The notes: a model not told the origin generated them from the letters alone. A stretch of 64,000 bases of DNA from a bacterium (GCA_037127815.1 JBAXXP010000001.1:104174-168173); one strand, 5' to 3'. Positions 192 to 50,382 are shown, counted from the stretch's first letter. Numbers and translations: made by a program.

Positions 192-240
192 ATCTTTTGT
201 GTTTTTGAATCCTAGCAGTTTAATGCCCTAAAGTCAACGT

Positions 241-792
241 TTATTTAACGTCTTCCTTTCGGAACAAGAAGCCAAAATAATCCATTAATGCTTTAACCTC
301 GGCCTTGGTCTTAGCTGTTGTAACTAAAGTTACAGCAAATCCGAAAACATCCTTTAATTCCTCATCAGATGTCTCAGCAAACACTGTATGCTCCTTAATT
401 CCAAGAGTATAATTACCCATAGAATCAATAGCAGTAACTTTAATTCCTCTAAAGTCTCTTGTTCGAGGAAGTGCAACGTTTACCAATTTCTCGATAAAAC
501 TCCACATTCTCTCACCTCTTAAAGTAACTTGCCATCCTACAATGTCCCCCTCTCTAACCTTAAATGATGCAATAGATTTCTTAGCTGCTGTTTGAGTAGC
601 TTTTTGTCCTGCAATCTTTGTTAGACGGTCTCCAATCAAAGCCTTCTTCTTTGGATCTTTAATTGAACCTTGTGTTGCAGAAAGAACAACCTTCAATACC
701 TTTGGAGCTTGAAGCTTGTTTGTATATCCAAACTCACCCTTTAGGGTTTCGTATGTTTTTGCTGCTTTTTCTTTTACTGTTTGATGTTTCAT
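241..792 (-). CDS. rplE: 50S ribosomal protein L5
   Basis: 183 aa, conserved L5 motifs and operon position (L24-L5-S14). Confidence 0.95.
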   Translation of the reverse strand: MKHQTVKEKAAKTYETLKGEFGYTNKLQAPKVLKVVLSATQGSIKDPKKKALIGDRLTKIAGQKATQTAAKKSIASFKVREGDIVGWQVTLRGERMWSFIEKLVNVALPRTRDFRGIKVTAIDSMGNYTLGIKEHTVFAETSDEELKDVFGFAVTLVTTAKTKAEVKALMDYFGFLFRKEDVK

Positions 793-4298: not shown

Positions 4299-4739
4299 TC
4301 AAGATACGCTTTTAAACGCTTCGATTTCAGCTTCTGCAATAATGAACCGCTGCTCATAACAACGAAGTCTTTCCCACATTGGAAGTAATACAATTGAAGG
4401 ATGGTCCTCTCTAAATTGCTGCCAAAGTGGAGTAAATTCCCAAAAATGGAGCAGGTGCTGAATCTCCTTTAGAGTTACCCCATTTTCCTTATAAAACTTT
4501 TCTACAATCAGATTTTGCTTTACCTGATCTCTAGTCCCAGAGAGCTTTTGACTTGCAAAATAAAGGTTTTCTAACATCTCAACTTTTTTCCTAATTGGCA
4601 CTTCAAGATCAAGGATGCAGGAATCAGCTTCTTGAATATTAACCCAAAAAGCAAGTCTTTCCTCCGGAATACTGTTAACATCCCAAATCTGATACAAAAC
4701 ACGAAAAAATCGAGCTTTAGACATATCTAAAAATTTCAT
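4299..4739 (-). CDS. Hypothetical protein, paralog A of tandem pair inserted between rpsS and rplB
   Basis: 146 aa; shares YQIW(D/G)V..P(E/D)ER(L/M)AF, (E/D)KFY(K/W)E(N/H)GV and ERL(R/E)(C/R)(Y/F)EQR(F/Y)I motifs with 4931..5356. Confidence 0.6.
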   Translation of the reverse strand: MKFLDMSKARFFRVLYQIWDVNSIPEERLAFWVNIQEADSCILDLEVPIRKKVEMLENLYFASQKLSGTRDQVKQNLIVEKFYKENGVTLKEIQHLLHFWEFTPLWQQFREDHPSIVLLPMWERLRCYEQRFIIAEAEIEAFKSVS

Positions 4740-4930: not shown

Positions 4931-5356
4931 TCACGATAATCCGTCGGCAAACTCACTGTAGATATAACGCTGTTCAAACCTTTCCAGACGCTCCAAAGGA
5001 GGCAGATCTGCAACAGATACGTAATCCAAGAGGTAGTTCTTGAAAGGAAGGTTAGACTCCCAATAACGCAAGCGGAAAGCTGGATCTGGTCCAACACCAT
5101 GTTCCCAGTAGAACTTGTCGCTAAAGAGCCCCCTTTCACTGGTATAGCTACCCCAATCTTCTTCACCAATATGAAAAGCTTCCAATGATTGTAACTGAAT
5201 CTCCTTTGGCAAGCCTTCAATGTTTCCTCCTACAGGCCCAAAAAATTTATCGAGAAAAGCCATTCTTTCGTCTGGTGTTGGGCCGACTCCCCAAATTTGA
5301 TAAAGATTATTCAAGTACTCATTGCGCCCGGTCTTTACTGAACTTAACTCTTTCAT
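4931..5356 (-). CDS. Hypothetical protein, paralog B of tandem pair inserted between rpsS and rplB
   Basis: 141 aa; clear paralog of 4299..4739. Confidence 0.6.
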   Translation of the reverse strand: MKELSSVKTGRNEYLNNLYQIWGVGPTPDERMAFLDKFFGPVGGNIEGLPKEIQLQSLEAFHIGEEDWGSYTSERGLFSDKFYWEHGVGPDPAFRLRYWESNLPFKNYLLDYVSVADLPPLERLERFEQRYIYSEFADGLS

Positions 5357-11433: not shown

Positions 11434-12198
11434 TTATTTACCTTCCTCTATATTTTTAAAGGCTAATTCAAACAAAGAGGTTAGGGTTTCCGCAAAATCC
11501 TTATTATAAACAATCATTCCACCCAATTTTGATCCCAAAGTAGCTATTCTTACCTTATTGTTGTAAATACTAATATCGCAACTTAAAGGATACTTTTTAC
11601 CATCTACGAACAACCTATTCCCCAAGTTAGCACTTCTGTCAATTTCCCCTTTTGAATACGTATATATTGATTTACCGGAAATTTTCTTATCTACCCTTAT
11701 TTTACGGAATCTATTACTATCGGCCTCTGAAAACAGACTTTCTATTAAATCCTTTGGATAAATCATATACATAGTGCCGCCTTTGTCATCTTTTGATTGG
11801 AAAAGCTCCTCAGTCATACTTATAACGCCCTCTTTTCCTTCAAAAAATTTAACTACAGGCTTTTCAGCATCCTCTCTGTAAATACTCTTAAGTTGTGGAA
11901 CTATATCCTTAAGTCTTTTACTTTGTTCATCCAGCTGTATTTTACGTCTTTCAATATAAGTCTCCAGTCTTTCTGGTGGTTCAGCTTGGTATCTAACCTT
12001 TTTATCAACTAAAACTTCAAATATTAGCCCTTTATTTGAAAGCGATTCAAGTACTGGATAGATAGTTGTACGATTAATTTTAGTCTTCTCAGCTAAATCA
12101 AGTACAGAATCATTGTCTACCTCCAAAAGAGACAGGTAAACCTTTGCCTCTTTCTCTGATAAACCTAAATCTTCAAGATATTTTTCAAACATAAGCAT
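11434..12198 (-). CDS. TrmB-family transcriptional regulator (N-terminal winged HTH plus TrmB C-terminal domain)
   Basis: MLMFEKYLEDLGLSEKEAKVYLSLLE...TTIYPVLESLSNKGLI wHTH; ORF runs to 12282 but overlaps upstream gene, so start at 12192/12198 preferred. Confidence 0.7.
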   Translation of the reverse strand: MLMFEKYLEDLGLSEKEAKVYLSLLEVDNDSVLDLAEKTKINRTTIYPVLESLSNKGLIFEVLVDKKVRYQAEPPERLETYIERRKIQLDEQSKRLKDIVPQLKSIYREDAEKPVVKFFEGKEGVISMTEELFQSKDDKGGTMYMIYPKDLIESLFSEADSNRFRKIRVDKKISGKSIYTYSKGEIDRSANLGNRLFVDGKKYPLSCDISIYNNKVRIATLGSKLGGMIVYNKDFAETLTSLFELAFKNIEEGK

Positions 12199-12271
12199 AT
12201 TATACCATAGAATATTTAAATTTCGTTTTAATAGACAATTTTTGGTTTTAAATTGTACTGCAAATGTAGGA

Positions 12272-13354
12272 TTATTTACCAAATATTCCAGATAATAGAT
12301 TGTTTACACCTTGCCAGATTGAAGCAAATAACCCAAAATTAGACAACTGAGATACCTTAGTACTAATTTTAACAACACCGGTACTTGTTGCGTTAAACTT
12401 AGGATTGTTTGTATCCGTAATTACAATTTTGTAAGGTTTATCATACTGAACAGCCTGACCAACAATATCCCAGGTTACACTTGCTTTTCCTCCACCTAAA
12501 TTGGAACCAGCTGTTACTGAGCCTAAAATACTAGTTCCAACCCATCCAAAAGGAACTAACCCAATACTCACAGAATCAGTAGAAGATAAATTATTAGACG
12601 TCCAAACAATATCTTTTGTTACAACTGTTGTTTTTGTCTTAATATAGACCTTCAGATTAGGGTTACTAGTTGTTGTAGTAAAAGGTACCCAAGTCTCATC
12701 AACACTCAGAGATAATAAAGACAATGAACAAGGCAAGGAGATAGTAAGAGGAAATTGATTAGTAGTTTTTCCAGTATACAGAGCTCTTGCTTGAACCTTA
12801 GCTACTTGCCCTATTTCGTAATTATTACACAGAATATAGTTCGGAACTGTCAAAATTTCTGTAGTTGAAGCAGCGTTAATTTGCTTAATTAAAACACTAT
12901 CGATATACAAAGACCAACTATTAACCTTTGAATTTGGGATATATAGATTACCGATTTTAAACGAATGATTACCTGGGTTGCTCTCAGTATCCACAGAATA
13001 TATGTAAGGAGATGTTGTTGCAAGAACAATAGTTGAGGTAGCTACTGTTGAGCTTGCTAATTGCTTATTTAGCGTCTGAAGCTGCAGATTTAATGAGATT
13101 AGATTTTGCTGTAGTGTTGCAACAGAGACATCCGCTGAGGATAACTGGTTTTGAAGTGCTAAAATCTGTGAGTTTATTGATGAAATTTGAGTTCGAAATG
13201 AGCTAATCTGTGCAGTTGTTGATGCAATATCCTTTTTTGTTGAGTCTATCTGAGTTTGAATCTGTGCTGTTGTTGCTGCGTTTGTAATGAAGGGTGACAC
13301 CAGCATGGAAACGCCTATCAGCGATAGTGCAACCAAATATATTTTTATTTTCAT
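12272..13354 (-). CDS. Secreted hypothetical protein (signal peptide, Q/S/T-rich coiled-coil, beta-rich C-terminal domain)
   Basis: 360 aa; N-terminal MKIKIYLVALSLIGVSMLVSPFITNA signal-like; no family recognised. Confidence 0.6.
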   Translation of the reverse strand: MKIKIYLVALSLIGVSMLVSPFITNAATTAQIQTQIDSTKKDIASTTAQISSFRTQISSINSQILALQNQLSSADVSVATLQQNLISLNLQLQTLNKQLASSTVATSTIVLATTSPYIYSVDTESNPGNHSFKIGNLYIPNSKVNSWSLYIDSVLIKQINAASTTEILTVPNYILCNNYEIGQVAKVQARALYTGKTTNQFPLTISLPCSLSLLSLSVDETWVPFTTTTSNPNLKVYIKTKTTVVTKDIVWTSNNLSSTDSVSIGLVPFGWVGTSILGSVTAGSNLGGGKASVTWDIVGQAVQYDKPYKIVITDTNNPKFNATSTGVVKISTKVSQLSNFGLFASIWQGVNNLLSGIFGK

Positions 13355-13373
13355 AAGTTATATTATACAACAA

Positions 13374-13412
13374 AAAAACAACCCCTAGTTTGAGGAGTTG
13401 TTTTTTTTGTGG
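13374..13412 (-). terminator. Rho-independent terminator after fusA
   Basis: minus-strand AACAACTCC-loop-GGGGTTGTT stem followed by TTTTTT. Confidence 0.55.
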
Positions 13413-13427
13413 ATAAGTTTTATCAGA

Positions 13428-16141: not shown

Positions 16142-16270
16142 TGTTCTGTAATTAACGTAATTTTAATAATTTTATTGATAATACGCGGTTCATAGATTTT
16201 ATTCAGTACCTCAACAGCTTTGTTAAAGACTTACTCTACGAACCATTTTGTACATTTTTAGTACAGCAGC

Positions 16271-39099: not shown

Positions 39100-39321
39100 A
39101 TTAAATTATGTTAATTGTACTTAAAATTTTAGTTTATTTTCAAATTATACGCTGTTTGATTTTTCTTAAAATTAAGCGTATTCTTTGAACCATACAGACA
39201 TCCAGACAAAGCCCTAGATCAATAATTTTGAACCTACTGTGGATAACTCCACAAAAGTACCAAAACCATGACAAATCCAAAACTCAGATAAACCCACTAT
39301 TATATATAATACACTTTGAAC

Positions 39322-45099: not shown

Positions 45100-45711
45100 T
45101 TAGTTGAAAAGCGGCAAAACCTTAACCTTACAGCTCACAAGGTTTGTTTTTGTTACACGTGAACCAGAATGATGAAGACTTATACAAATACCGAGGAATT
45201 TAAGGCTTTCTTCCTTAATATCAAAGTCCATACAATATTTTAAGGCCATCAATCTGACTTTTCTTAACTTCTCCTTCGTTAGGTTGATCTCTGGCTTCAG
45301 CCACTCCACACCCTTTCCGTCTCTAATAACACTTATACTAGGGCCAAAAAGGTCGTCTCCCCCACTGTCTTGATTAGAAGGGATTCTAAGGGTTTTAACC
45401 TCGACTATGTAATAATAACCGTCTTTTTGCGCAATTATATCAATCTCACCTATTTTATTCCTATAATTTCTATCAACTATCTGAAAACCGCGTTTTTCTA
45501 AAAAAACTACAGCTATACTCTCACCAAGATCACCAACCTTCTTATTTGAATTGCTTTTATCCCCTTTGTCTATCACATCTTCTTTATTATGACTTTTAGA
45601 TCTTATTCCGAGTTTTATTCTTGATTTGTCCTTTTTAGAACCCACCTTACTTACTTCCACACCCCTTCCTGTGTCAACTTTGTCCTTTTTTGATTGTTCT
45701 ATTATGATCAT
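45100..45711 (-). CDS. YraN-family (UPF0102) endonuclease with K-rich N-terminal extension
   Basis: GESIAVVFLEKRGFQIVDRNYRNKIGEIDIIAQKDGYYYIVEVKT motif. Confidence 0.75.
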   Translation of the reverse strand: MIIIEQSKKDKVDTGRGVEVSKVGSKKDKSRIKLGIRSKSHNKEDVIDKGDKSNSNKKVGDLGESIAVVFLEKRGFQIVDRNYRNKIGEIDIIAQKDGYYYIVEVKTLRIPSNQDSGGDDLFGPSISVIRDGKGVEWLKPEINLTKEKLRKVRLMALKYCMDFDIKEESLKFLGICISLHHSGSRVTKTNLVSCKVKVLPLFN

Positions 45712-45990
45712 TGTTTATTATTTATTACTATTAACAAACGGATGATATACAAACCAGATGAAGAACCTATAAAGATTTATTAAAGAAAAGCAAAAGAAAA
45801 GATGTACTTTTTAAGAAAAGAGACAAAATATATAGATCACCTTCAACCTAGTGTTTCTCATGAAACGTTGAAAATGAGGTTACAAACGGGTTAAACATAC
45901 AAAAAAACACCATTTAGTAGCAAAATAAGGGTTTCATAGGAAACACCCCGTATTATTGTCAAGAAAATAGCAATATTTTACTAAAAGACA

Positions 45991-46121
45991 GTGGATAGCC
46001 ACTTATCCACACAATTAAACCTTATTTATAGCCATATATTGCGTTTTTCCTTATAAAATAGCATTTCTGTATAAGCCTGATTTCTATGTCTTTTATACAC
46101 ATATCCACGGAGTTATCCACA
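45991..46121. promoter_or_regulatory. DnaA-box cluster: TTATCCACA at 46004..46012 and 46113..46121 plus degenerate boxes at 45991..45998 and 46101..46109 in AT-rich intergenic DNA
   Basis: perfect 9-mer consensus DnaA boxes, one forming head-to-head pair GTGGATAG-CCAC-TTATCCAC. Confidence 0.4.
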
Positions 46122-46226
46122 GTCTAGGACATTTTATAAGTCACTTAGGGACAAAAATGCCGTCTCATACCAATCTTAACTACACCGCAATAACCAACCA
46201 TTCTTTATGATCTAACTATCAAATTG

Positions 46227-46297
46227 TGCGGGTAGGGAGAATCGAACTCCCGTCTCGTCCTTGGCAAGGACGCATTCTACCACTAAACCATACCCGC
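46227..46297 (-). tRNA. tRNA-Gly (anticodon GCC), CCA not encoded
   Basis: GCGGGTA acceptor, anticodon stem CGUCC/GGACG loop UUGCCAA, T-arm GGGAGTTCGATTCTCCC. Confidence 0.85.
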
Positions 46298-46338
46298 ATA
46301 TTATTTTGCTTTATTATTATAACACTAAATTATAATTG

Positions 46339-46410
46339 TGCACCCGCCAGGACTCGAACCTGGAATAACGGTTCCGAAGACCGTTGTGATATCCATTTCA
46401 CCACGGGTGC
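46339..46410 (-). tRNA. tRNA-Arg (anticodon TCG), CCA not encoded
   Basis: GCACCCG acceptor, anticodon stem ACGGU/ACCGU loop CUUCGGA, T-arm CCAGGTTCGAGTCCTGG. Confidence 0.85.
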
Positions 46411-46491
46411 ATATTCCATATCCTGATCACCACTGAGACAGTCTACATCATAGATAGCAAAAAATCAAAAGGTGTACTAATATTCTATATA

Positions 46492-48018
46492 ATGACTACT
46501 AAAGACATAAACAATAATCCAATAAAAGAACTGAGTAACAAACTACTAAAAAAAATAGACCAGGGTAGTGTTCCTGCCTATATACAGAATATCGTCATCA
46601 AACTGCAGGAAGCGGGCTTTTCAGCTTATTTAGTAGGGGGTTGTGTAAGAGACCTGATATTAAAGAAACAGCCAAAAGACTGGGATATTACAACAAGCGC
46701 AAAACCTGAAGATATAATCAAAACTTTTGAAGAGACATTTTATGAAAATGACTTTGGAACTGTTGGTATAAAAATAAGAAAAGGGACAGGGGAGACAGAA
46801 ATAGTAGAAGTTACACCCTATAGAACAGAAGGTGATTACTCAGATAGCAGACATCCTGATGAGGTAACTTTCAGCAGTAATATAAAGGACGACCTTCTGA
46901 GAAGAGACTTTACAATTAACGCAATGGCATATGATTCAGTAAAAGACACTATAGTTGATGAGTTTGAGGGTTTAAAGGACATAAAAGACAAGGTCATAAG
47001 GGCAGTAGGAGACCCAGTTAAACGATTTCACGAAGATGGACTCAGATTGATTAGGGCGGTTCGTTTTGCTGCCGAATTAGGTTTCATGATTAACATAGAC
47101 ACACAAGAAGCTATCATATCGGAATCCGGGGTTCTTAAGAAAATTGCAACAGAAAGGATTAGGGAAGAATTCGATAAATTACTTATGTCTAAACAGCCTG
47201 CCTTAGGTATAGCGATGGCTCAAAAGCTTGGTTTGTTGAGTATTTTCTGCCCAGAACTTGAGGGAGCGGTTCATGTGAAACAAAACCAAGCCCATTCTTA
47301 TGATGTTTTTGAGCATCTCTTGAGGAGTTGTCAGTGTGCTGCGGACAAAAATTGGAGGCTGGAGATAAGATTAGCTGCTTTATTCCACGATATTGGAAAG
47401 CCACCAACAAAAAGGGGTAGTGAAACAAGTGATATAACCTTTTATGGACATGAGGTTGTTGGCGCTAAAATGTCTAAAGTTATATTAGAAAGGATGAAGT
47501 ATCCAACAAAAGTTATTACAGTTGTTACAAAACTGATCCGTTGGCACATGTTTTTCTCGGATACTGAACAAATAACACCCTCAGCTGTCCGAAGAATGAT
47601 AGCAAATGTTGGCAAGGAATACATTTGGGACTTAGTAGACCTAAGAATTTGCGACCGTGTAGGAACGGGAAGACCCAAGGAAAACCCTTACAGACTTAGA
47701 AAATACAGGGCTCTTATTGAGGAGGTGATGATGGACCCAATTGATGTGGGGATGCTTAAAATTGATGGAAATACGCTGATTAAGGAATTAAACATACCAG
47801 CAGGGCCAATTATAGGACTAATTTTAAATGCTTTACTTGAGGAGGTTCTAGAGAAACCAGAACTTAACACACAAGAGTACCTTACAAAAAGGGCTATAGA
47901 AATTTCTATGTTTCCCATGAAACAACTCAAGGAACTATCTGAAAAGGGGGTATTAAGAAAAAAAGACCTAGAAAATGAGCAAATAGAGGAAATCAGAAAA
48001 AAGCACGATATTAGATAG
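46492..48018 (+). CDS. cca: CCA-adding tRNA nucleotidyltransferase with C-terminal HD domain
   Basis: GGCVRDLIL head motif, RRDFTINAMAY, HD domain FHDIGK; 508 aa. Confidence 0.85.
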   Translation: MTTKDINNNPIKELSNKLLKKIDQGSVPAYIQNIVIKLQEAGFSAYLVGGCVRDLILKKQPKDWDITTSAKPEDIIKTFEETFYENDFGTVGIKIRKGTGETEIVEVTPYRTEGDYSDSRHPDEVTFSSNIKDDLLRRDFTINAMAYDSVKDTIVDEFEGLKDIKDKVIRAVGDPVKRFHEDGLRLIRAVRFAAELGFMINIDTQEAIISESGVLKKIATERIREEFDKLLMSKQPALGIAMAQKLGLLSIFCPELEGAVHVKQNQAHSYDVFEHLLRSCQCAADKNWRLEIRLAALFHDIGKPPTKRGSETSDITFYGHEVVGAKMSKVILERMKYPTKVITVVTKLIRWHMFFSDTEQITPSAVRRMIANVGKEYIWDLVDLRICDRVGTGRPKENPYRLRKYRALIEEVMMDPIDVGMLKIDGNTLIKELNIPAGPIIGLILNALLEEVLEKPELNTQEYLTKRAIEISMFPMKQLKELSEKGVLRKKDLENEQIEEIRKKHDIR

Positions 48019-48091
48019 AGTTTAACCATTACCCAAATTCAAAACAAGTAACTAGACAATAAGGTGCATACTCAATAAATACAAACTAACA

Positions 48092-48118
48092 AAAATACCG
48101 CTCTATAGGCGGTATTTT
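48092..48118 (+). terminator. Rho-independent terminator after cca (AAAATACCGC-TCTATAG-GCGGTATTTT)
   Basis: stem plus T-run 75 nt after stop. Confidence 0.6.
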
Positions 48119-48391
48119 TGTTAGTTTTTTAAAATGTAAAACTCTTTATAGAAAGAGCCTCAGTACTGGACGCAACAAGGTTATAGTTATTATGATGCGG
48201 CCGTACTAAGGCCCTCGAAACAAGTGTGGGAAACGAAACAAGTAGAAACGATTGAGAAAATTGAGATATTTATTTAATTGTTGTGGGTTGTCTCTATGAT
48301 TATGGGGTAGGCCAGTGTAAGTCCTGTATTCTCCATTTAAATGTGATGCCCAGATTAGAGCTCACTAAGCTAATTTTGGGAGAATTTAAAA

Positions 48392-48639
48392 TGTCCTTTA
48401 TTACCAACCAATCCGTATCATTAAGACTTCCTCAAAGAACTATTTGACCCGATGTTGGGCCGCTCATCTGTCCTTTATTCTAATTCATATTAAAGACATG
48501 TAAAGGACATTATCGTAAATTCTTGTGGATAACTTTTTATTTATTTATTATTTCATTCTGACCGCTATGATAAAGGACATTCTAGTGTTAAATATTTTGT
48601 GAAATTATTTAATTATTCTACTGAAATAAGTTATCCACA
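48392..48639. repeat. Array of short repeats: TGTCCTTTA (48392, 48469) and inverted TAAAGGACA (48501, 48572) plus two perfect DnaA boxes (48524..48532 complement, 48631..48639)
   Basis: direct reading of convergent intergenic region between cca and xth. Confidence 0.45.
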
Positions 48640-49445
48640 ACTAATTTTACTGGGCAGTGATCTGAACCTGTAAAATCATCTTCTATTGTGCATGATTTTA
48701 TTTGATTCATAATTTTCTTCGATACAAAAAAATAATCTATTCTCCATCCAACGTTTCTTTCTCGAGCAAACGTTTTCATGTCCCACCAAGTATAAGCGTC
48801 TATTTTATGTGGGTGTAACTCCCTAAAAACATCTACATACCCAGCTTCAATGAATTTATCAATCCAAATTCTCTCTTCAGGTAAAAATCCTATACTTTTT
48901 TTGTTTTGTTTCGGTCTAGCTAAGTCTATTTCCTCATGAGCCACATTAACATCACCACAAAAAACAACACTTAAGCCTTTGTTTGTAAGCTTTTTACAGT
49001 ATTTCAAAAATTCTTTGTAAAAATCAAGTTTATACTGAAATCTCTCTGGGGCGCCCCCTCCATTTGGAAAATAGCAGTTAATTAGTGCCCACTTATCAAA
49101 AATCAAACATATCATTCTACCTTCCTGATCCATCTTTGGTATTCCAAACCCATACTCAATTTTATTTGGAGTTGTTAATATGTCCTTCATATATATTGCT
49201 ATTCCACTGTATCCTTTTTTGAGTTTAGAATGATCAAAATAACTAACGTAACCTTTAGGGTTTAGTATTTTTTCATCTAACTGATCTACGTGTACCTTGG
49301 TCTCTTGCATACACATAAAATCTGTGTTCTGTTGCATAATTAACTCAAAAGACCCCTTTCTGTGTATAGCTCTTAAACCATTTACGTTCCATGAAATTAT
49401 ACTTAATTGTTTTTTCATTTTATTAAAGACATTATTTTTAATCAT
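48618..49445 (-). CDS. xth: Exodeoxyribonuclease III (AP endonuclease)
   Basis: LSIISWNVNGLRA start, ExoIII/APE catalytic motifs. Confidence 0.9.
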   Translation of the reverse strand: MIKNNVFNKMKKQLSIISWNVNGLRAIHRKGSFELIMQQNTDFMCMQETKVHVDQLDEKILNPKGYVSYFDHSKLKKGYSGIAIYMKDILTTPNKIEYGFGIPKMDQEGRMICLIFDKWALINCYFPNGGGAPERFQYKLDFYKEFLKYCKKLTNKGLSVVFCGDVNVAHEEIDLARPKQNKKSIGFLPEERIWIDKFIEAGYVDVFRELHPHKIDAYTWWDMKTFARERNVGWRIDYFFVSKKIMNQIKSCTIEDDFTGSDHCPVKLVVDNLFQ

Positions 49446-50382
49446 TCTTCTCCTTACGTCCGTGAAAGTTTTTGTGTATGTCTTTTAGGTGTTTGTCTGT
49501 TACGTGTGTATATATTTGTGTCGTGACAATACTTGCATGCCCCAGAAGAGCTTGCACAGAGCGTAAATCGGCTCCATTTTGCAATAAATCTGTTGCAAAG
49601 CTGTGTCTTATAACGTGAGGTGTTACTTTTTTGGAAACCCCAGCACTTATTGAATGGTGTTTAACAAGTCTTTCAACAGACCTTGGTGTTATATCAAACA
49701 TCAATCCACTTGTAATATCAACTCGCTTCTTTAAATACTCCCTCAACGCCTGTTTTGCTGTCTCAGACATAAAAACCACTCTGACCTTGTCTCCCTTACC
49801 TCTAATTGAGAATTCGTCTTTATTCAAATCAAGATCCCTGGGCACGGAACATAATTCTGAGACACGAAGCCCTGTTGAAAACAGAAGCTCCATTATAGCC
49901 TTATCTCTTAGCCTCTTTTTTTCATCTTTCTCATTATCTGGAGATTTCAGTATTCTTTCGAGCTCTTCTATTGAAATATGGTCAATTTGCCTCTCCGGGA
50001 CCTTAGCAAGCTCTATATTATCAGGAGATAATATCTGTAGACCTCTTTTAGCCATATACTTTAAATAAGCCCTTAAGGCAATAAGGTAGTAGTTTTGAGT
50101 CCTTTTTTTAATAAAACTAGTGCCTGTTTTTGTTGCAAATGAACGCCTGTTTAGGAAAAGCCTGTATTCTCTTAGTTTTTCCTCAGTTATGTCTGATGGG
50201 CAATCTGATTTAAGAAATTCTAGAAAAAGATCGAGATATCGATTATAGTTATCGACTGTTTTTAAACTCCTACCTTTTTCAATCTCTGTATATTCTAAAA
50301 AGTGGCGTTTTAAAGTCCCCAAACTCGATTTTACATCGGTCTGGCCACCAAACTTATCATCAACAGAGTTATTGTGCGACAT
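49438..50382 (-). CDS. Tyrosine recombinase XerC/XerD family
   Basis: C-terminal R..HVIRHSFAT..GADLRSVQALLGHASIVTTQIYTHV catalytic box. Confidence 0.85.
   Translation of the reverse strand: MSHNNSVDDKFGGQTDVKSSLGTLKRHFLEYTEIEKGRSLKTVDNYNRYLDLFLEFLKSDCPSDITEEKLREYRLFLNRRSFATKTGTSFIKKRTQNYYLIALRAYLKYMAKRGLQILSPDNIELAKVPERQIDHISIEELERILKSPDNEKDEKKRLRDKAIMELLFSTGLRVSELCSVPRDLDLNKDEFSIRGKGDKVRVVFMSETAKQALREYLKKRVDITSGLMFDITPRSVERLVKHHSISAGVSKKVTPHVIRHSFATDLLQNGADLRSVQALLGHASIVTTQIYTHVTDKHLKDIHKNFHGRKEKND

Follow-up and report, generated by a model that had tools for sequence, protein, structure and literature searches.

The locus and its source

A group of DnaA boxes surrounds two tRNA genes and cca in a 64,000-nucleotide stretch of bacterial DNA (GCA_037127815.1, JBAXXP010000001.1:104174-168173). 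The whole stretch is called the window below, and positions are counted from its first letter. An earlier reading of the same DNA (the original prediction) had singled out these boxes as a candidate replication origin (oriC) or DnaA-regulatory locus, and they are analysed here together with their counterparts in related genomes. The gene order is yraN (-), a spacer with box cluster 1, tRNA-Gly(GCC) (-), tRNA-Arg(TCG) (-), cca (+), a 600-bp spacer with box cluster 2, xth (-), a XerC/D-type recombinase gene (-) and rpsO (+). The order from yraN to rpsO is retained in many relatives, distant ones included. The xth open reading frame (ORF) spans 48618-49445.

The window comes from a chromosome of the Paceibacteria (Patescibacteria, also called the Candidate Phyla Radiation, CPR). 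Identical DNA is also present in contigs of boreal-lake metagenomes and forms part of the NCBI assembly GCA_005795785.1; contigs of 0.2-1 Mb with this locus exist, and a further related sample is JGI 3300021520. The six contigs with the same cca are all at least 99.99% identical and thus give no substitution information, and in scans of genomes and metagenomes no cca matched over its full length at an identity between 58% and 100%. Among species representatives, those nearest to the window are Paceibacteria genomes whose cca protein shows just 47-58% identity. About 20 such relatives have both of the box modules described below, which are conserved across this uncultivated class. The relatives are loci numbered from L001 onward, with 21-64 kb per genome used for the skew work. 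For box density, 56 Patescibacteria-like cca loci were compared with 104 loci from other bacteria; L041-L086 are non-Patescibacteria. L018 is a locus on a 553-kb contig (CAZYLF010000001.1), and its flanking genes mostly differ from those of the window.

DnaA boxes around cca

Perfect copies of the DnaA box TTATCCACA start at 46003(+), 46113(+), 48524(-) and 48631(+). The four perfect boxes of the original prediction are therefore all present, the first of them at 46003 rather than 46004, and so are its additional degenerate boxes. One of these, at 45989(-) with two mismatches, faces the perfect box at 46003(+) in a head-to-head pair; the others are TTATACACA at 46093(+) and ATATCCACG at 46101(+). 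All boxes had been placed in intergenic DNA, which holds for the others but not for the box at 48631-48639, situated in the last codons of xth.

The density of boxes exceeds chance, as had been proposed. The whole window contains six perfect boxes against 0.84 expected, a number reached in none of 100 shuffles, and four of them fall within 2,656 bp where 0.034 would be expected (Poisson P ~5e-8). When up to two mismatches are allowed, the yraN-tRNA spacer holds seven boxes (two perfect) in 514 bp, or 13.6 per kb against 4.3 per kb for the window, the highest density among the intergenic regions of the strand-switch zone described below. The second cluster has four such boxes (two perfect) in 622 bp. 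A cluster of several boxes in non-coding DNA above chance, one of the criteria for an oriC, is thus found here.

Synteny of the box cluster in related genomes, another such criterion, is found as well. Among the Patescibacteria-like loci the rate of perfect boxes is 0.355 per kb in the cca flanks and 0.021 per kb elsewhere, a 17-fold difference; the flanks carry a perfect box in 24 of these 56 loci and in 0 of the 104 from other bacteria. The boxes are close to certain to be functional DnaA sites.

The two remaining perfect boxes of the window are also intergenic. The box at 39238-39246 lies about 70 nt upstream of clpP in the divergent rsmE-clpP spacer, and that at 13408-13416 lies between the fusA terminator and the start of the next gene. 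These two boxes suggest that DnaA is a general transcription factor in this lineage.

Module 1 upstream of yraN

Cluster 1 contains a 35-bp element, module 1, with three direct DnaA-box-like 9-mers over two helical turns. Alignment of the yraN-cca spacers of the relatives on the perfect box gave the consensus TGTCTTTTAT-ACACA-TATCCACr-GAG-TTATCCACA. A pattern search found the element conserved nearly base for base in at least 17 relatives, whose GC content ranges from 29 to 53%. Conservation at such divergence argues that module 1 is functional, and it is the best candidate for an oriC core. In every relative, even the rearranged L019 and L012, it lies directly upstream of yraN, at a distance of 35-375 bp. 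The genes for tRNA-Gly(GCC) and tRNA-Arg(TCG) lie beside module 1 in every relative (L012-L032), and their orientations flip independently.

Module 1 resembles module 2, the element of the second cluster, in its layout of TGTCTTTTAT, one or more boxes, GTTATCCACAG, N4 and GTCC. Compared with module 2, the promoter hexamers in module 1 appear to have been replaced by boxes or to have decayed. In L019 module 1 and module 2 adjoin each other between xth and yraN, which fits a single ancestral element that was later split by the tRNA genes and cca.

Module 2, a DnaA box fused to a predicted promoter

The original prediction denied any promoter role to the convergent spacer between cca and xth. This was wrong, as the minus strand carries a predicted promoter, P2, which is conserved in 14 relatives; the spacer is therefore a transcription unit. 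In a promoter scan, P2 was of the sigma70 type, TTTACA-16 nt-TAGAAT, and matched the consensus at 10 of 12 positions. Its hexamer spacing, within 16-18 nt, and its upstream box are those of a DnaA-regulated sigma70 promoter. The composite element reads (A/G)GTTATCCACA-N4-16-GTCCTTTACA-(a)TGTCTTTTA-N6-9-TAnAAT when 15 loci are aligned. The 10-mer GTCCTTTACA, which contains the -35 hexamer, is invariant in all 15 units, and each unit has a DnaA box upstream, which in the 14 relatives lies 4-16 nt from GTCCTTTACA. The 10-mer occurs essentially once per relative locus, at the P2 position. Module 2 is likely to be a DnaA-box promoter for an unannotated transcript.

The short repeats of this spacer belong to the same element. 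Four copies of TAAAGGACA or its complement TGTCCTTTA are present as had been reported, at 48392(-), 48469(-), 48501(+) and 48571(+). They had been taken for iterons, a reading that does not stand: they appear to be parts of a conserved promoter/operator fused to a DnaA box, namely the -35, spacer and +1 parts of P2, together with two more copies nearby. The 9-mer TGTCYTTTA occurs 15 times in the 64 kb, and 10 of these copies fall within 45982-49479. The observed counts of TAAAGGACA repeats were reached in 0 of 100 shuffles. A match to the pattern GTCYTTWACA-N14-19-TAnnnT at 16196 (GTCTTTAACA) stands in a different context and was set aside as a chance occurrence.

The P2 cassette is a separable unit that moves as a whole. 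It is inverted in L010, L050, L089, L092 and L094, and in L016 (2520-3040) a P2-like cassette, with a DnaA box at 2601, a promoter, about 400 nt and a strong terminator, lies between rsmE and the next gene. Because the cassette can be inverted or moved in this way, module 1 is the better candidate for the core of an origin.

A TrmB-like helix-turn-helix regulator is encoded at 11434-12282 of the window. Its homologues lie between cca and xth in L015 (3914-4702 and 10445-11233) and L021 (12606-13400), an insertion point that is the usual site of the P2 cassette. Speculatively, this regulator is a candidate for the factor that binds TGTCYTTTA.

The predicted P2 transcript

The transcript predicted from P2 would run to a terminator behind cca, and the relatives have an equivalent terminator, GCGGTTTTTT. 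The stretch between P2 and the terminator measures 230-435 nt and is poorly conserved. The window copy of the RNA folds far below shuffled controls (z = -5.25). The P2 RNAs of the relatives share a 5' hairpin, with differing stem sequences, and the short motifs CAGAy, CCGAGG and GTTCTTTsA; they are too diverged for global alignment or consensus folding (35% column identity).

No conserved ORF was found in the P2 transcript, and the reading as an mRNA for a small protein was dropped. A search of the window and 13 relatives against Rfam 15 gave no family at gathering scores, and terminator-like noise alone at E of 10 or less. RNase P RNA, 6S RNA, signal recognition particle RNA and transfer-messenger RNA were considered as identities for the P2 RNA, with no support for any of them.

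parS-like sites beside module 1

The centromere site parS, bound by ParB, has the consensus TGTTNCACGTGAAACA and is origin-proximal in most bacteria. The palindrome GTTTCACGTGAAAC corresponds to the parS consensus. The window has six parS-like hits in 64 kb against 0.53 expected, and four of the six lie at 45151, 45852, 47267 and 47909. The window's own copies have two or three mismatches, and perfect copies stand at the same locus in relatives, which carry a perfect GTTTCACGTGAAAC where the window has the degenerate 45852 site. In most relatives GTTTCACGTGAAAC is found between yraN and module 1, or within or beside cca. The yraN/cca region has 15 parS-like sites in 5 kb in L023, five in L027 that directly abut module 1, and four each in L007 and L110. 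No parS-like site at two or fewer mismatches was found in the non-Patescibacteria loci L041-L086. In L023 (3000-8100, 34% GC), five of the 15 sites are perfect 16-mers around cca, and five copies of TATAAACGACA are interleaved with TGTCCTTTA motifs.

Strand switch and rearrangements

On the left side, genes are on the minus strand up to 34.8 kb, with sod as the sole exception, in a run of about 45 kb that begins at least 10 kb outside the window. On the right side, most genes from 50.5 kb onward are on the plus strand, over about 22 kb, and this continues for at least 10 kb past the window's end. The locus therefore has the position at a divergent gene-strand switch that is a criterion for an oriC. 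In L018, 100% of the left genes are on the minus strand and 96% of the right genes on the plus strand, and the switch falls exactly at module 1.

Blocks of genes change sides around the locus. The recJ-rnhA-comEC block, which is on the left and on the minus strand in the window, is on the right and on the plus strand in L016 and L026, and the nusA-hup block is on the other side in L019. The inversions in relatives pivot on this locus.

Table 1. Features of the yraN-xth region, with positions and strands in the window
Feature	Position	Strand	Remarks
Module 1	46087..46121	+	TGTCTTTTAT-ACACA-T-ATCCACG-GAG-TTATCCACA; three phased direct DnaA boxes
TAAAAGACA, then head-to-head box pair	45982..46011		AGTGGATAG (2 mismatches, -) and TTATCCACA (perfect, +)
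Module 2	48470-48532	-	DnaA box fused to predicted GTCCTTTACA(-35)-TGTCTTTTA-TAnAAT promoter
Perfect DnaA box	48524..48532	-	15 nt upstream of GTCCTTTACA, 19 nt from TTTACA hexamer
Perfect DnaA box	48631..48639	+	Overlaps final codons of xth
Predicted promoter P2	48477..48509	-	GTCCTTTACA with -35 TTTACA at 48499-48504; TGTCTTTAA; -10 TAGAAT at 48477-48482
TGTCCTTTA copy	48469..48477	-	At predicted transcription start
TGTCCTTTA copy	48392..48400	-	Inside predicted transcript, ~+75 from start
Predicted unannotated transcript	48080..48472	-	Candidate non-coding RNA, ~390 nt, between P2 and terminator
Bidirectional intrinsic terminator	48083..48127	.	19-pair stem and T tract; ends cca and minus-strand RNA
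AT-rich stretch (79% AT)	48533..48630	.	Between two perfect boxes; TAAAGGACA at 48571; weak unwinding-element candidate
parS-like palindrome TGTTACACGTGAACCA	45151..45166	.	2 mismatches to TGTTTCACGTGAAACA; inside yraN
parS-like palindrome TGTTTCTCATGAAACG	45852..45867	.	3 mismatches; spacer between yraN and module 1
yraN (UPF0102 family)	45100..45711	-	Pfam and NCBIfam matches; constant neighbour of module 1
tRNA-Gly(GCC)	46226..46297	-	Orientation flips among relatives
tRNA-Arg(TCG)	46338..46410	-	
cca (CCA tRNA nucleotidyltransferase)	46492..48018	+	parS-like sites inside at 47267 and 47909
xth (exonuclease III) and XerC/D-type recombinase gene	48618..50382	-	Chromosomal housekeeping genes; synteny kept in relatives

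Replication origin or DnaA-regulatory locus

On balance, the region at 45.85-48.64 kb is probably a replication-origin region that is unlinked to dnaA. As an either/or statement the original prediction of an oriC or DnaA-regulatory locus with no dnaA nearby is supported, because the boxes are syntenic in many Paceibacteria, lie at the strand switch and stand beside parS-like sites.

If the region is an origin, DnaA would oligomerise on module 1, open nearby AT-rich DNA and start bidirectional replication, and ParB would load on the adjoining parS sites. P2 would be controlled by DnaA together with a protein recognising TGTCYTTTA, and its transcript would be a structured non-coding RNA with a level coupled to DnaA status. 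Alternatively, transcription from P2 may aid or gate the opening of the origin; at the E. coli oriC, flanking transcription influences opening.

The other reading, clearly less probable but a serious one, is a DnaA-regulon or DnaA-titration locus that lies near the origin and not at it, the true oriC being elsewhere, for example beside dnaA. The boxes would then be operators for the promoters of yraN and the P2 RNA, perhaps buffering free DnaA. Titration has precedents in datA of E. coli and in the DnaA-box clusters of B. subtilis. Several observations weigh against an origin here, and many of them favour this alternative. All six perfect boxes of the window, those at 13408 and 39238 included, are directly upstream of likely promoters, and the main function of DnaA here may hence be that of a transcription factor. 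Module 2 has clearly the appearance of a promoter, with its box at about -45 to -55, and the same composite promoter would drive a phage gene (see below). Module 1 always travels with yraN, 35-375 bp upstream of it even after rearrangement, which is how a promoter element behaves. In L016 the P2 cassette has been relocated and lies 7 kb away from module 1.

The composition of the window's DNA counts on the same side. In the window itself no skew switch was found at 46-48 kb in per-gene GC3/TA3, in 4-fold sites or in models scanning the origin position, and the minimum of the cumulative GC skew at 34-56 kb mostly tracks gene strand. The relatives give a point in favour of an origin: pooled over 17 loci and separated from gene strand, the GC skew of 4-fold sites changes from -0.18 left of the locus to +0.05 right of it, a difference that is open to confounding by gene-specific codon usage in syntenic blocks. 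A stability scan of the window found no convincing unwinding element. By a nearest-neighbour scan the stretch 48533-48630 is at about the 99th percentile of duplex instability, with less stable DNA elsewhere in the window, and the boxes flanking it point away from it if the box-to-trio polarity is that of the E. coli oriC. A basal unwinding system with a box-spacer-DnaA-trio unit has been defined (PMC8287927), and a check by eye for DnaA-trio runs as described there (PMC8287927) found none evident beside the conserved boxes.

The search for dnaA also speaks against an origin at this place. The Pfam-scanned ORFs of the window included no dnaA or dnaN, and neither did the Pfam calls for genes up to 10 kb past either end; tblastn of the window gave no dnaA either. 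The absence of both genes from the window, noted before, was thus confirmed. Nor was dnaA detected within 4-10 kb of cca in 166 loci (L001-L166) by motif search and tblastn; for the latter an E. coli DnaA sequence served as query, which is adequate for homology detection. Adjacency to dnaA or dnaN, a common though not obligatory feature of an oriC, is thus not seen here. Since dnaA was not located, a stronger box cluster beside it elsewhere is conceivable.

What argues against a mere regulatory or titration locus is the position of the boxes. The chromosome needs an origin at the divergent switch, and the only box clusters in that 16-kb zone are the two described here. The strand switch of L018 coincides with module 1, clusters of parS-like sites directly abut it, and the inversions pivot on the locus. 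In L007, moreover, a minus-strand tRNA follows module 1 within 45 nt, and hence module 1 cannot be a plus-strand promoter there.

Two further explanations can be weighed more briefly. A remnant or integrated mobile element, with an iteron origin of plasmid or phage type beside a tRNA gene and an integrase, would account for the tRNA genes and tyrosine recombinase nearby, for the short repeats, and for the related box arrays and P2-type promoter in phage contigs. It is very unlikely, as the recombinase is of the XerC/D type, the yraN-tRNA-cca-xth-xerC-rpsO block is syntenic in distant relatives, rep, primase and other mobile-element genes are lacking, and the GC content matches the surroundings; moreover, in place of tandem iterons of 17-22 bp there are 9-mers, arranged as inverted and direct pairs within a promoter. 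Short motifs in the intergenic DNA of an AT-rich genome might also arise by chance, an explanation effectively refuted by the shuffles (0 of 100), the Poisson value (P ~5e-8) and base-for-base conservation at 47-58% cca identity.

The elements of the locus can also be joined in a single tentative picture, which we consider possible and rather unlikely as a whole. TGTCYTTTA would be the site of a DnaA partner specific to the Paceibacteria, the P2 RNA would be a new structured non-coding RNA wired to DnaA, and phages would have copied both the promoter and the box array. Hypothetically, the partner protein would work next to DnaA, both at the origin and at a few promoters, the P2 RNA would either couple the initiation of replication to a different process or itself affect initiation, and phages would copy the host elements to tap the replication state of the host.

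Comparison with known systems

The oriC of E. coli is unlinked to dnaA and is flanked by the gidA and mioC promoters. The present locus is similar in that consensus TTATCCACA boxes are clustered at a site apart from dnaA, and in that a flanking promoter, like mioC, has a DnaA box, so that flanking transcription could modulate opening. Unlike in E. coli, no 13-mer/GATC unwinding element was recognised here, tRNA genes and cca interrupt the cluster, the conserved 9-mer TGTCYTTTA accompanies the boxes, and the flanking transcript would be an unannotated RNA and not an mRNA.

Bipartite origins are known as incAB-dnaA-incC in B. subtilis and oriC1-dnaA-oriC2 in H. pylori. Here, too, two box clusters have genes between them, and the contiguous clusters of L019 are as expected if an insertion split one origin. 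Unlike in the bipartite origins, it is not dnaA but the genes for tRNA-Gly and tRNA-Arg and cca that stand between the clusters, no box-spacer-DnaA-trio unit was detected, and the second cluster appears to be a movable promoter cassette.

The promoters of dnaA, mioC and nrdAB are regulated by DnaA. As in these, a consensus box at the present locus lies directly upstream of, or within, a sigma70-type promoter; module 1, in contrast, is without a convincing promoter of its own. Box clusters outside the dnaA region recall datA and the titrating clusters of B. subtilis. Unlike regulated promoters and titrating clusters, the two clusters of this locus are found where gene strand switches, parS-like sites gather and inversions pivot. 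The perfect or near-perfect 16-mers clustered at the locus in relatives are like the sites of parS/ParB systems, whereas the window copies have two or three mismatches and the window has no parAB genes.

Related elements in phages and other observations

Three near-identical phage contigs from IMG/VR carry the composite promoter (L171 184-260, L172 1451-1530 and L173 1993-2070). It has the form GTTATCCACA-N12-GTCCTTTACA-N4-TGTCTTTTA-N8-TAAAAT and is placed just before an ATG, with the large terminase gene on one side and a gene for a 598-residue protein on the other. In a second type of phage, which has genes for terminase, an SU10-type portal, capsid and adaptor, at least 12 DnaA boxes are repeated in tandem about every 11 bp. 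This array begins with TGTCTTTTATCCACAGG, is found at 230-420 (-) of L178 and also in L174, L179 and L180, and is adjoined by the parS-like GGTTCCACGTGGAAC. The array may serve as an origin for the phage or as a sponge for DnaA. That phages carry arrays of the TGTCTTTTAT-box type supports the array as a functional DnaA-binding module, and both types of element appear to be used as functional modules beyond the present locus.

Two observations concern other parts of the chromosome. The S10 ribosomal operon of the window has two minus-strand ORFs between rplB and rpsS, at 4299-4739 and 4931-5356, which encode proteins of 146 and 141 residues with no Pfam match. In L168 (5581-8609), about 5-8.5 kb past the right end of the window, type IV secretion genes (PrgI-like and TraC/VirB4-like) follow a gene for an SLT-domain protein, all on the plus strand.

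Implications

No description of CPR origins or of their DnaA boxes was found in the literature searched. The genomes of Patescibacteria/CPR are usually started at dnaA by convention. If the proposed origin is the true one, the yraN-tRNA-cca region would be a landmark for orienting and checking CPR assemblies and an anchor for growth-rate estimates from peak-to-trough read depth. The promoter with its DnaA box and TGTCYTTTA, together with its predicted RNA, offers testable handles on the coupling of replication and gene expression in uncultivated, host-dependent bacteria, and the elements shared with phage contigs suggest a marker for predicting the hosts of CPR phages.

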